Positions 1-49,222 of a DNA stretch of 49,222 nucleotides are shown here, piece by piece. Source of the stretch: Escherichia coli (GTDB lineage: Bacteria > Pseudomonadota > Gammaproteobacteria > Enterobacterales > Enterobacteriaceae); NCBI RefSeq assembly GCF_003334255.1, contig NZ_QOWU01000039.1. One strand, given 5' to 3'. Made by a program: the position numbers and the translations under genes. Position 1 is the first letter of the stretch; each line of letters starts with the position of its first letter. Below the pieces are notes generated by a model. That model was not told the origin of the DNA, did not search any database, and saw nothing but the letters and a program-made list of their open reading frames with translations.

Positions 1-77
1 AATCGGTGGAGCTGCATGACAAAGTCATCGGGCATTATCTGAACATAAAACACTATCAATAAGTTGGAGTCATTACC
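1..77 (+). mobile_element. IS1 right end (partial; window starts inside the element): 3' end of insB plus right terminal inverted repeat ending ...GTTGGAGTCATTACC
   Basis: Frame 3 of bases 3-62 translates to SVELHDKVIGHYLNIKHYQ*, the InsB C-terminus; bases ~55-77 match the IS1 terminal repeat as I recall it. Confidence 0.8.
3..62 (+). CDS. insB: IS1 transposase InsB, C-terminal fragment (5' end outside window)
   Basis: Translation SVELHDKVIGHYLNIKHYQ followed by TAA at 60-62. Confidence 0.75.
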   Translation, partial: SVELHDKVIGHYLNIKHYQ

Positions 78-1005
78 CTGCGTTCTCCACTAACGATATA
101 ACGTTGGCAATCGATAAATCGGGGTTATTGGTGTATTCACAGGAGAGCGCCATTGACGAACATCCCTGTGCGAAACGAACAGATTCGGCAAACGGCATTC
201 CGTCTACCCAACACGAAGCAAGTCCCGCCATCATGGCATCGCCCGCTCCGGTAACATTAATAACATTGGTTTTGATCGGCGCAGACCAGCCACTTTCACC
301 GCTGATATCGCTGTAATAAACGCCGTCGCCGCCCATGCTCAATACCAGTCGGTTCAGGCCATGTTGATGGAACCAGGCAGCAACTTTTGCCACATCTTCA
401 CGCCCTGACAGCGCAATCCCACTCAGGGTTTCCGCTTCAAGGCGGTTTGGCTTGAGAGTGTGGATCTGATTTAGACGGTCGCGCACTTTGACACATTTCC
501 ATGCCGAAACCGGATCGACAAATACGGGTACGTTGGCGGCATTATCCAGAATCCATGCCAGTGCCTCTTCACTGATATTACAGTCCGCGACAATGACCTT
601 TGCCCTCTGAATAAATTCACCGTGCTGTGCGAGATATTCAGCTGTAATAGCGTTGCTAATATTCATGTCATTTATAGCAACCAGCATTTCACCGGTATTA
701 TCGAGTAATGATAAATAACTCGACGTATTTTCTCCCGGCACAATCAGGCATTTATCGACATAAACGCCAGATTGATTGGTTTGCGTTAGCAGCGATTGAC
801 CATAAAAATCACTGCCTACGGCGCTCAGTAGCCAGGCTTTGTTACCCAGCAACGCCAGGTTTTGTGCAATATTGCGCCCTACTCCACCAGGCGTAAATTT
901 TATTTTACCTGGATTTGAATCCGCATAATTTAATGATTCATGTGAATATCCGGCGACATCAATATTCGCCGAACCTATAATTACGACATAATCCTTTTCG
1001 CGCAT
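73..1005 (-). CDS. psuK: Pseudouridine kinase (PfkB/ribokinase family); 310 aa here versus 313 aa recalled for K-12, 3' end replaced by IS1 sequence
   Basis: ORF track 73..1005; PfkB motifs GGVGRN and TGAGDAMMAG; N-terminus MREKDYVVIIGSANID; stop codon lies inside the IS1 repeat. Confidence 0.85.
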   Translation of the reverse strand: MREKDYVVIIGSANIDVAGYSHESLNYADSNPGKIKFTPGGVGRNIAQNLALLGNKAWLLSAVGSDFYGQSLLTQTNQSGVYVDKCLIVPGENTSSYLSLLDNTGEMLVAINDMNISNAITAEYLAQHGEFIQRAKVIVADCNISEEALAWILDNAANVPVFVDPVSAWKCVKVRDRLNQIHTLKPNRLEAETLSGIALSGREDVAKVAAWFHQHGLNRLVLSMGGDGVYYSDISGESGWSAPIKTNVINVTGAGDAMMAGLASCWVDGMPFAESVRFAQGCSSMALSCEYTNNPDLSIANVISLVENAG

Positions 1006-1072
1006 AGCACGTCCTCTGGTAAAAAATTACCAACCCTGTCAATCCACAAGAATATAGATACTGCAAAGACGG

Positions 1073-1108
1073 TTTAAACATGTGTTCATATTTAAACATG
1101 TGCTCATA
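1073..1108. repeat. Tandem 18-bp direct repeat TTTAAACATGTG(T/C)TCATA x2 in the psuK upstream region, each unit containing the palindromes TTTAAA and ACATGT
   Basis: Read directly: 1073-1090 and 1091-1108 are identical at 17 of 18 positions. Confidence 0.6.
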
Positions 1109-1242
1109 GTATGCATGTTTTACGTAAAGTAAATTACCGCCAGAGAGGCAAAATGGGCAGATTTGAGCAGGCTCACAAAATGCGATTAAATGCCTGAATT
1201 ACAAAAGCGAGGAATTTGTGACGGGATGCACAGAACAGAACA

Positions 1243-1271
1243 ATAAAAAAGGGCAGAAAATAATCTGCCCT
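1243..1271 (-). terminator. Intrinsic terminator, probably for fruBKA: stem GGGCAGA/TCTGCCC followed by a T-tract on the minus strand
   Basis: Inverted repeat 1251-1257/1265-1271 flanked by AAAAAA on the plus strand (T-run on minus). Confidence 0.55.
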
Positions 1272-1384
1272 TGAGGAAATAACCTGAGTGTTTGATGAAC
1301 GTTTGAAGTTTCTACTGAAAGATAAAACCATTTAAATTCATAAAATTACATTCACAAACCGGTCATTCTCTTTGCGCTCATCAA

Positions 1385-1417
1385 ATGTTACAGGACAGGA
1401 AATTTCTGCCCTGTAAC
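1385..1417 (-). terminator. Stem-loop immediately 3' of fruA (13-bp imperfect inverted repeat); possible terminator or RNA-stability element
   Basis: TGTTACAGGACAG ... CTGCCCTGTAACA, 11 nt downstream of the fruA stop. Confidence 0.4.
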
Positions 1418-1427
1418 ACACCTTTTA

Positions 1428-3119
1428 TTACGCTGCTTTCGCTACTGCGTCCACTTCCGGACGTTTCAGGAAGGCATAGGCCAAACCCGCCACCAGCGTA
1501 CCGGCAATAATTGCTACCAGGTAACCCAATACCGGCGTAATAGCGCCAGGGATCAGCAGAACAAACAGACCACCGTGCGGTGCCATCAGTTTCGCACCAA
1601 TCGCCATTGAGATTGCGCCAGTCAGCGCCCCACCCACGATACAGCACGGCAGCACACGCATCGGATCACGAGCAGCAAACGGAATTGCACCTTCCGAAAT
1701 GAAGCACAGTCCCAATACCAGAGCGGCTTTGCCACCTTCCTGCTGCGCTTTGTCGAATTTGCGACGCGCCACCATTGTTGCCAGACCCATTGCCAGCGGT
1801 GGCACCATACCTGCCGCCATAATCGCCGCCATCGGGCCATAGGTTTGAGTACTCAGCAGACCCACACCGAATGCGTACGCTGCTTTGTTTACCGGACCGC
1901 CCATGTCAGTACACATCATGCCACCGAGGATCGCCCCCAGCAGAACCGCATTCGCAGTCCCCATGGTCTGCAGCCAGTGAGTCAGCCCTTCGAGAATGCC
2001 AGCAACTGGTTTACCGATCAGGTAGATCATCGCCAGACCGACCACCAGACTGGAAATTAGCGGAATGATCAGGATCGGTTTCAGCGCCTCCATACTCTGT
2101 GGCAGTTTCAATTGCGTACTGATTAACTTCGCAATGTAACCAGCCAGGAAGCCCGCAATAATACCACCAATGAAGCCAGAACCGGTGCTGACCGCCAGCA
2201 TACCGCCAATCAGACCCGGAGTGAGGCCCGGACGATCGGCAATGGAAAAGGCAATATAACCTGCCAGTACCGGCACCATCAGCGCAAAGGCTGAACCACC
2301 ACCAATCTGCATCAGCGCCGCAGCCAACGTACCCGGCTCTTTAAACGCTTCGATACCAAAAGCAAAAGAAAGCGCGATACACAGACCACCTGCAACGACC
2401 ATCGGCAGCATGTAAGAAACGCCCGTCAGCAAGTGACGGTATGCGCCTGCACTCTCTTTCTTACTTTCAGTGGTCGCCGTTTGAGCTTTGCCCGCCGGTT
2501 CATACGGCGTTGCTTCAGCAACCGCTTTATCCAGTTCCTGCGCGGTTTTCTTCAGCGCCAGACCGGTAGAGGTACGATACATCGGTTTACCAGCAAATTT
2601 CGCCAGATCCACTTCGATATCTGCCGCCACAATCACCAGATCCGCTGCTGCGACTTCTTCGGGAGTGATTGCATTACCCGCGCCAACAGAACCACGGGTT
2701 TCAACTTTCACCCACCAGCCACGTTTTTTCGCTTCGGTTTCAATGGCTTCAGCCGCCATAAAGGTGTGTGCTACGCCAGTCGGGCAAGCAGTCACCGCAA
2801 CTACGCGTTTCGGACCGCTGGCGGCAACTGGTGCTGTCGCAGCGACCGGCGCAGTGTAAGGTTTCGCATGGCCTTTGGCTTCACTCAGGAACAGCTCAGG
2901 GTGCGCAACTGCCCGGGAAATATCGCCCAGCCAGACATTTTTACCGTTCAGCGCGCTGTCGTTCGGGATGGAATCACCGAGAACAATCGCCATTTCAGCG
3001 TCGTTCGGATTGTCGATGATTTCCAGTTTTGCTTTTCGCGCCGCCGCGCCCAGCAGGGTCTTCGCCATATAGGCGCGTGCCTGACCGAGATTAGCGTCAA
3101 TAATCAGCAGCGTTTTCAT
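1428..3119 (-). CDS. fruA: PTS fructose-specific EIIB'BC component
   Basis: 563-aa ORF; membrane EIIC domain and duplicated EIIB region; synteny with fruK and fruB. Confidence 0.95.
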   Translation of the reverse strand: MKTLLIIDANLGQARAYMAKTLLGAAARKAKLEIIDNPNDAEMAIVLGDSIPNDSALNGKNVWLGDISRAVAHPELFLSEAKGHAKPYTAPVAATAPVAASGPKRVVAVTACPTGVAHTFMAAEAIETEAKKRGWWVKVETRGSVGAGNAITPEEVAAADLVIVAADIEVDLAKFAGKPMYRTSTGLALKKTAQELDKAVAEATPYEPAGKAQTATTESKKESAGAYRHLLTGVSYMLPMVVAGGLCIALSFAFGIEAFKEPGTLAAALMQIGGGSAFALMVPVLAGYIAFSIADRPGLTPGLIGGMLAVSTGSGFIGGIIAGFLAGYIAKLISTQLKLPQSMEALKPILIIPLISSLVVGLAMIYLIGKPVAGILEGLTHWLQTMGTANAVLLGAILGGMMCTDMGGPVNKAAYAFGVGLLSTQTYGPMAAIMAAGMVPPLAMGLATMVARRKFDKAQQEGGKAALVLGLCFISEGAIPFAARDPMRVLPCCIVGGALTGAISMAIGAKLMAPHGGLFVLLIPGAITPVLGYLVAIIAGTLVAGLAYAFLKRPEVDAVAKAA

Positions 3120-15887: not shown

Positions 15888-16982
15888 ATGGGCGCTTACC
15901 TGATTCGCCGTCTGTTGCTGGTGATCCCAACATTATGGGCGATTATCACCATCAACTTTTTCATCGTGCAAATTGCGCCTGGCGGTCCGGTCGACCAGGC
16001 CATCGCCGCCATTGAGTTTGGTAATGCCGGAGTATTACCCGGCGCAGGCGGTGAAGGTGTTCGTGCCAGCCATGCGCAAACGGGTGTCGGCAATATCAGC
16101 GACAGTAATTACCGTGGCGGACGCGGATTAGATCCAGAAGTGATCGCTGAGATCACTCATCGCTACGGTTTTGATAAGCCGATCCACGAACGTTACTTCA
16201 AAATGCTCTGGGACTACATCCGCTTTGATTTTGGCGATAGCCTGTTTCGCAGCGCCTCGGTGCTGACGCTGATTAAAGACAGTCTGCCGGTTTCCATCAC
16301 CCTCGGATTGTGGAGCACGCTGATTATCTATCTGGTGTCGATTCCGTTAGGCATTCGCAAAGCTGTTTATAATGGGAGCCGCTTTGACGGCTGGAGTAGC
16401 GCATTTATCATCATCGGCTACGCCATTCCGGCCTTTTTGTTTGCCATCCTGCTGATTGTCTTCTTCGCGGGCGGCAGCTATTTCGACCTGTTCCCTCTAC
16501 GCGGCCTGGTTTCCGCTAACTTTGATTCGCTGCCGTGGTATCAGAAAATCACCGATTATCTGTGGCATATCACGCTGCCGGTGCTGGCGACAGTGATTGG
16601 TGGCTTTGCGGCGCTGACCATGCTGACAAAAAACTCATTCCTTGATGAAGTGCGCAAGCAATACGTGGTGACCGCGCGTGCGAAAGGGGTAAGTGAAAAA
16701 AATATTCTCTGGAAACATGTGTTCCGCAACGCCATGCTGCTGGTGATTGCCGGTTTTCCGGCGACGTTTATCAGCATGTTTTTTACCGGCTCGCTGCTGA
16801 TTGAGGTGATGTTTTCACTCAATGGTCTGGGCTTACTGGGCTACGAAGCGACCGTCTCGCGCGATTATCCTGTAATGTTTGGTACCTTGTATATTTTCAC
16901 CCTGATTGGCCTGCTGCTGAATATTGTCAGTGATATCAGCTATACGCTGGTTGATCCGCGTATTGATTTTGAGGGACGTTAA
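15888..16982 (+). CDS. yejB: ABC transporter permease
   Basis: 364-aa ORF; start immediately after the yejA stop. Confidence 0.9.
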
Positions 16983-49077: not shown

Positions 49078-49146
49078 TTATTCTTTTTTACCTGCCTGAC
49101 GGAATGTCAGGTTGTAGCGGCAGTCGATGGTGAGTGGATGAAACCC
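49078..49146 (-). pseudogene. alkB: 3' fragment of alkB (last 22 codons, GFHPLTIDCRYNLTFRQAGKKE*), separated from the rest of the gene by IS186
   Basis: Minus-strand translation matches the AlkB C-terminus as I recall it; an in-frame stop and unrelated sequence follow at 49147 onwards. Confidence 0.7.
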
Positions 49147-49222
49147 ATAAGCGCTAACTTAAGGGTTGTGGTATTACGCCTGATATGATTTAACGTGCCG
49201 ATGAATTACTCTCACGATAACT
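49147..49222 (+). mobile_element. IS186 left end (partial): terminal inverted repeat ATAAGCGCTAACTTAAGGGTTG plus start of the transposase gene
   Basis: Repeat recognised from memory; ATG AAT TAC TCT CAC GAT AAC at 49201 encodes MNYSHDN, the N-terminus of IS186 transposase. Confidence 0.65.
49201..49222 (+). CDS. insL: IS186 transposase, N-terminal fragment (3' end outside window)
   Basis: Encodes MNYSHDN..., matching the IS186 transposase N-terminus as recalled. Confidence 0.6.

Follow-up and report, generated by a model that had tools for sequence, protein, structure and literature searches.

The left end of the contig analysed here (NZ_QOWU01000039.1, from Escherichia coli assembly GCF_003334255.1; its whole 49,222 nucleotides are referred to as the window) joins the right end of an IS1 element directly to the 3′ end of psuK. 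The junction, first noticed by inspection of the sequence, is confirmed. It is an ordinary disruption by a mobile element and of a kind already known, either a textbook polar insertion or an IS1-bounded deletion, in which the element is IS1 itself. We somewhat favour a fresh, simple transposition of IS1, with duplication of 9 bp of target, over a deletion or rearrangement; under either, the strain should be able to phosphorylate pseudouridine without cleaving the pseudouridine-5′-phosphate that is formed. Below, we describe the junction and the proteins on either side of it, then the contig in which it is found, and then the explanations that can be offered for its origin.

Bases 1-77 (plus strand) had been taken in the first-pass annotation for the right end of IS1, and alignment shows them to be identical to the last 77 nucleotides of a full 768-bp IS1A copy (locus L002). 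Translation of bases 3-59, with a stop codon at 60-62, gives SVELHDKVIGHYLNIKHYQ, which is the C-terminus of InsB as encoded by the IS1 open reading frame in strain G1/2; the earlier assignment of bases 3-62 to InsB was therefore correct. Features expected of an IS1 terminus are present: the insB frame closes just inside the right repeat (3-62, including the stop), the terminal inverted repeat, GGTAATGACTCCAACTTATTGAT..., lies at the tip of the element (approximately 55-77), and the tip itself, ...GGAGTCATTACC, ends precisely at base 77. From base 78 onward, which corresponds to base 2501 of the MG1655 locus (L001), the sequence is K-12-type psuK with 100% identity. Alignment to IS1 and to the K-12 psuK/psuG junction, the check that had been proposed for the annotation, thus gives IS1 through 77 and psuK from 78. 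Identity remains at 100% over 78-1100 in comparison with K-12-type genomes and over 78-25000 in comparison with strain G1/2. The psuK (yeiC) reading frame occupies 73-1005 on the minus strand, and is preceded by an intact psuK/fruA intergenic region of K-12-type identity, which includes the psuK promoter region (1006-1427, minus strand); the open reading frame of fruA follows at 1428-3119 in the list of open reading frames.

The position of the junction is best appreciated from the native arrangement of the two genes. In MG1655, as the first-pass annotation had stated for K-12, the gene downstream of psuK is psuG. What had escaped notice is that the two genes overlap there by 13 nt (ATGTCTGAATTAA), the native sense strand reading ...GTG GAG AAC GCA GAA TGT CTG AAT TAA with the psuG ATG embedded in it. 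The sense strand of the contig reads ...GTG GAG AAC GCA G/GG TAA TGA CTCC (the slash marks the boundary with IS1). Because of the overlap, an element that enters psuK a few codons before its stop ends 1 nt upstream of the psuG ATG position. The K-12 organisation psuK-psuG-psuT is consequently not found on the contig, IS1 standing in place of all native sequence beginning 1 nt before the psuG ATG.

It is necessary to consider whether the junction is real, since it lies at the very end of a contig. The window is a complete short-read contig that overlaps by approximately 77 nt into a repeated insertion sequence at both of its ends; it begins inside IS1 because a short-read contig has been broken at two such copies. 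About 77 nt of repeat at each end is the typical look of a contig assembled with k=77. At the right end, the last 76-77 bases (49146-49222, plus strand, approximately 77 nt) belong to the end of an IS186/IS421-family element that interrupts alkB, and the alignment to G1/2 stops at 49146. The 3′ part of alkB on the contig lies at approximately 49078-49146 on the minus strand, and the element follows after about nucleotide 582 of the 651, so that some 22 codons are missing from the end of the gene. The same alkB junction is seen in six complete genomes, VG48B2 (with 100% identity), PCN061, MLI023K1, MLI023K2, PRO_A-1412-6M-A_ESBL and LT883142, and is missing from G1/2, G6/7 and G8.

That the IS1 portion measures exactly 77 nt, a common assembler k-mer size, might raise the suspicion of a chimeric contig end generated from a repeat k-mer. 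An overlap of one k-mer into a repeat is, however, the expected appearance of a true insertion sequence junction, and the identical junction recurs with other lengths of IS1, 120 nt in a second assembly (L004) and 27 nt in a Logan contig (L005), from other samples and other assemblers. The protein that results, a PsuK of 310 amino acids, is found as an exact match on seven contigs (six of 20-50 kb and one Logan contig of 2.2 kb), has been deposited under four GenBank/ENA accessions (CUK08965.1, OWD38296.1, RCQ37999.1 and CAM3060518.1), and is carried by, amongst others, assembly GCA_965136505.1 and sequencing run ERR1948968. Since the junction recurs with different overlap lengths and the protein stands under four accessions, we do not consider it to be an assembly artefact, an explanation to which we attach almost no credence.

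A search of 5,426 complete E. coli genomes found the junction in one piece in none of them; it therefore marks a lineage that is known only from draft assemblies. The closest complete relatives, G1/2, G6/7 and G8, are collinear with the window and 100.0% identical to it over 49 kb (78 to 49146), and all three have psuK-psuG-psuT intact. In VG48B2, where the alkB junction is also present, the genes from psuK to cirA stand in their native order and there is no IS1 in the vicinity. Given the absence of the junction from the complete genomes and the intact psuK-psuG-psuT of the closest relatives, the event is specific to this clone.

The product of the interrupted psuK gene ends ...ENAG, at 310 amino acids, in place of the ...ENAECLN of the native protein of 313. 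It was correctly noted from the sequence that the stop codon, at 73-75, comes from IS1 and that the lengths are 310 and 313; the suggestion that the last three or so codons are replaced holds for the replacement but not for the number, four residues (E310, C311, L312 and N313) having given way to a single glycine after 309 native ones. The Gly310 codon, GGG, is made up of one native G and two bases of IS1, and the TAA stop lies inside the inverted repeat of the element. The Pfam PfkB domain (PF00294) spans residues 5-295 of the 310-residue protein (E = 8.8e-70), and the native-type protein of 313 residues matches PDB entry 7vkp, a solved structure of E. coli PsuK for which related entries exist, over 1-313 (E = 6e-208); the protein thus has both the domain of the family and near-identity to its structurally characterised E. 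coli member. In the structural work, the C-terminal region of E. coli PsuK is described as Met285-Asn308 (PMC9247573). Both the PfkB domain and the region ending at Asn308 stop short of the residues that are lost, from which we infer that the shortened protein is still a working kinase; the tail is probably dispensable and the loss of residues 310-313 probably harmless, so that the effect of consequence would be that on psuG and psuT. Strain U1 has an even shorter PsuK, truncated by IS1B, which is annotated as intact by PGAP. The ‘pseudouridine kinase’ of 310 amino acids deposited under the four accessions is an IS1-truncated allele, a point that is relevant mostly to annotation.

A contig that ends one k-mer's length into an insertion sequence shows one junction only, and what lies on the far side of IS1 has to be deduced from elsewhere. 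The element is visible for 77 nt in the window and for 120 nt in L004, none of the assemblies of the clone spans it, and its left flank is outside the contig. Evidence on what may be expected there comes from a survey in which all IS1 copies located inside or beside psuK/psuG in complete genomes were mapped onto the native gene order. There are seven cases. In 2017.15.02CC and in U1 (NZ_CP041359.1), psuK carries a simple insertion with a 9-bp duplication, of IS1A in the former and IS1B in the latter, and psuG of 2017.15.01CC likewise has a simple IS1A insertion with a 9-bp duplication. 23AR1101 has a simple insertion in psuK in the opposite orientation, for which the duplication was not mapped. 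In the other three, 13C1065T, 8600 and GDSC2227PM, IS1 lies between a remnant of rihB and a remnant of psuG as the result of a deletion. At this locus, then, deletions are almost as frequent as simple insertions on the unseen side of an IS1 junction.

A simple insertion is, in our view, moderately the more probable explanation of the present junction. It accords with the four simple copies out of the seven in complete genomes, three of which were mapped at both ends with 9-bp duplications. In such an event, IS1 would have duplicated the 9 bp adjoining its tip, CTGCGTTCT (78-86; AGAACGCAG on the sense strand, positions -10 to -2 relative to the psuG ATG). The duplications made by IS1 measure 8-10 bp, and most often 9 bp; the present one is a prediction mapped to the native sequence, the second copy being outside the window. 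The left junction would then read ...CAGACATT-CTGCGTTCT-GGTGATGCTGCC, where GGTGATGCTGCC... is the left repeat of IS1; put in another way, this repeat should be flanked by ...TTCAGACATT followed by CTGCGTTCT.

Simple insertion would also have distinct consequences for the downstream genes. psuG and psuT would be left beyond the 768-bp element, with psuG retaining its ATG but no more than 10 bases of native sequence before it, too few for a promoter. At -12 to -9, CCAG would take the place of the GGAG ribosome-binding site of psuG, whose translation would no longer be coupled to that of psuK. Before reaching psuG, any transcript begun at the intact psuK promoter would first traverse IS1 in antisense, 768 nt that are not translated; the element is classically strongly polar through Rho whichever way it lies, and transcription should stop there. 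A consensus scan of the full IS1 in this orientation gave no outward promoter-like site facing psuG, and the scan for terminators and promoters on the psuK-to-psuG strand gave nothing above chance. The expectation of polarity and of ribosome-binding site loss is drawn from established knowledge of IS1 together with inspection of the sequence. The net effect would be that pseudouridine is phosphorylated while both the cleavage of pseudouridine-5′-phosphate by PsuG and the PsuT transporter are silenced. The first-pass annotation, whose interpretation as a whole is partly supported, had raised a possible polar effect on psuG; this probably understates the matter, since the ribosome-binding site and the coupling would be lost as well under simple insertion. 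Its placing of psuG beyond the element goes further than the sequence of the window supports.

The principal alternative is that the left repeat adjoins a distant locus (for example rihB), so that psuG has been lost and not just moved, probably along with psuT and yeiL. Two routes could lead there: intramolecular transposition of IS1, which gives adjacent deletions, and recombination between a pair of directly repeated copies of the element. The three deletion genomes of the survey are the clearest precedent, as they have the order rihB remnant-IS1-psuG remnant-psuK with IS1 in the same orientation as here, and account for three of the seven comparable copies; seen from the psuK side, their junctions look exactly like that of the contig. 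It is also consistent with deletion that the contig holds no sequence to the left of IS1 and that the psuG ATG has been removed from the visible side of the junction. Set against this, simple insertions are locally at least as common (four of seven), neither this clone nor VG48B2 was found to carry a resident IS1 from which an adjacent deletion might have started, and none of the remnant proteins specific to such a junction could be assigned to the clone. We therefore regard a deletion or rearrangement as a genuine but clearly less probable explanation.

A special case of deletion is suggested by the lineage of the closest complete relatives, G1/2, G6/7 and G8, which carry an IS1 in yeiL from which an adjacent deletion could have removed the yeiL remnant, psuT and psuG, with precisely the observed junction as its outcome. 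G1/2 has the 49-kb identity already described, its yeiL copy is only 2.6 kb from the position of the junction with the right repeat facing psuT, psuG and psuK, and the lineage has already been rearranged here by an 11-kb inversion between the IS1 copies of yeiL and cirA. However, all five yeiL and cirA copies that were examined (L006 5834-5963, L012, L015 and both copies of L017) have an A at nucleotide 82 from the right tip, whereas the corresponding position in L004 (10929-11048) has the canonical G. The change is synonymous (TTC to TTT in insB) and is a copy-specific marker of the G1/2 lineage. The window itself ends 5 nt short of the marker, so that the argument rests on L004 as another assembly of the same junction, and on the assumption that k-mers across the junction anchor the 120 nt of IS1 read there. 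The fusion proteins of the lineage, which a genome of this origin would have to encode, point in the same direction. CirA-5′::IS1 (572 amino acids) is on six contigs, none of them in the 10-20 kb or 20-50 kb classes, and among the matches listed for it there is none from a sample known to carry the 310-residue PsuK; YeiL-N::IS1 (136 and 149 amino acids, from two start codons) is likewise without a contig in either class. Both fusions were found only on a few long contigs and on small Logan contigs, whereas the 310-residue PsuK is in six assemblies of 20-50 kb. With the marker at nucleotide 82 and with fusion proteins that are unseen in assemblies of the clone type, we reject adjacent deletion from the G1/2 yeiL copy, its probability being very slight.

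Some features of the neighbouring region are of interest in their own right. In G1/2 (L017, NZ_CP060083.1 1725400-1745000), the inverted segment of 11 kb runs from cirA-5′ via lysP, nfo and rihB to yeiL-N, and is bounded by the two IS1 copies, in inverted orientation, in yeiL and cirA; in GCA_000768465.1 (L028, L030), yeiL and cirA carry the same insertions but the segment is not inverted. Pseudogene forms of yeiL are common in E. coli and owe their state to an internal stop, a frameshift or an IS1 insertion (L031 5519-6217 of VG48B2; L018-L027); the C-terminal fragment of YeiL, 81 amino acids long, is called as a separate protein. In the three deletion genomes (L032, L034 and L036), 3.1-3.4 kb is missing, with different end points on both sides; these are three independent deletions in which rihB-5′, yeiL, psuT and most of psuG have gone, and psuK has been spared each time, a pattern that may stem from selection or from a local hot region for IS1. 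The right-repeat junction in 8600 is at the base directly after the 9-bp duplication of the psuG::IS1 of 2017.15.01CC (L034 compared with L033; reference 16277-16286, in psuG), which suggests that one target site in psuG may have been used twice.

Several searches bear on the left junction that simple insertion predicts. Among JGI metagenome contigs, there were no matches to this junction (with a duplication of 7-13 bp allowed), and none to the contig's own junction, which was used as a control; the clone is therefore not in that collection. The 9-bp duplication would create a TTG start 24 nt upstream of psuG, and exact look-up of the N-terminally extended PsuG that would result (MAASPERR followed by PsuG, in three alleles) found none on record; gene callers would be expected to keep the native ATG. 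Other proteins of the region proved too widespread to be diagnostic, the PsuG allele of G1/2 occurring in 1,024 blocks of the collection and the YeiL C-terminal fragment of 81 amino acids in 240; a YeiL remnant of 97 amino acids was found in one assembly only.

With psuG and psuT presumably lost to silencing or to deletion, strains with the 310-residue PsuK are very probably unable to complete pseudouridine catabolism, as judged from the sequence. The psu pathway can be regarded as dispensable, because some 22% of complete E. coli genomes have no psuK. IS1 was found at the locus in 7 of 4,226 complete genomes that have psuK, with approximately 10 IS1 copies per genome; as a rough estimate, in which copies shared by descent are not separated, this is not obviously above chance. 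At least eight independent IS1 events were counted at the psu/rihB region, and it might be asked whether the uncoupling or deletion of psuG, psuT, yeiL and rihB by IS1, with psuK spared, is a recurrent and selected change in natural E. coli. We think this improbable, and would put little weight on it. If it were true, the change could relate to the selection of psuK/fruA mutations in the mouse gut, for example by turning a catabolic pathway into one for the phosphorylation of pseudouridine only.

The nearest parallels are the classical polar insertions of IS1 in the gal and lac operons of E. coli, described in the 1970s, in which downstream genes were silenced by the element in either orientation. 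As in those cases, a 768-bp IS1 would lie inside an operon, with the upstream gene still expressed and termination occurring in the untranslated element. In contrast to them, the site here is in a 13-nt gene overlap, the downstream ribosome-binding site and coupling would also be removed, and only one flank is seen. The insertions in U1, 2017.15.02CC and 2017.15.01CC are closer in location, being in the same two genes and the same orientation, and theirs are simple with 9-bp duplications; the psuK::IS1B of U1 is only approximately 40 bp from the present site and also gives a C-terminally shortened PsuK. They differ in having other positions, none of them in the psuK/psuG overlap, and in that both flanks are visible. 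Adjacent deletions mediated by IS1 were reportedly described by Reif and Saedler in 1975. The deletion genomes 13C1065T, 8600 and GDSC2227PM resemble the present case in that the right repeat of IS1 faces psuK and psuK is retained, but 78-558 nt of psuG are kept in them and none on the visible side here. Finally, evolution of E. coli in the mouse gut has selected mutations in the psuK/fruA intergenic region, and altered expression of psu genes recurs in gut-adapted E. coli (PMC9509342). These mutations affect the same locus but are upstream, in the psuK promoter region, which is identical to that of K-12 in the window, whereas it is the 3′ end of the gene that is altered here.
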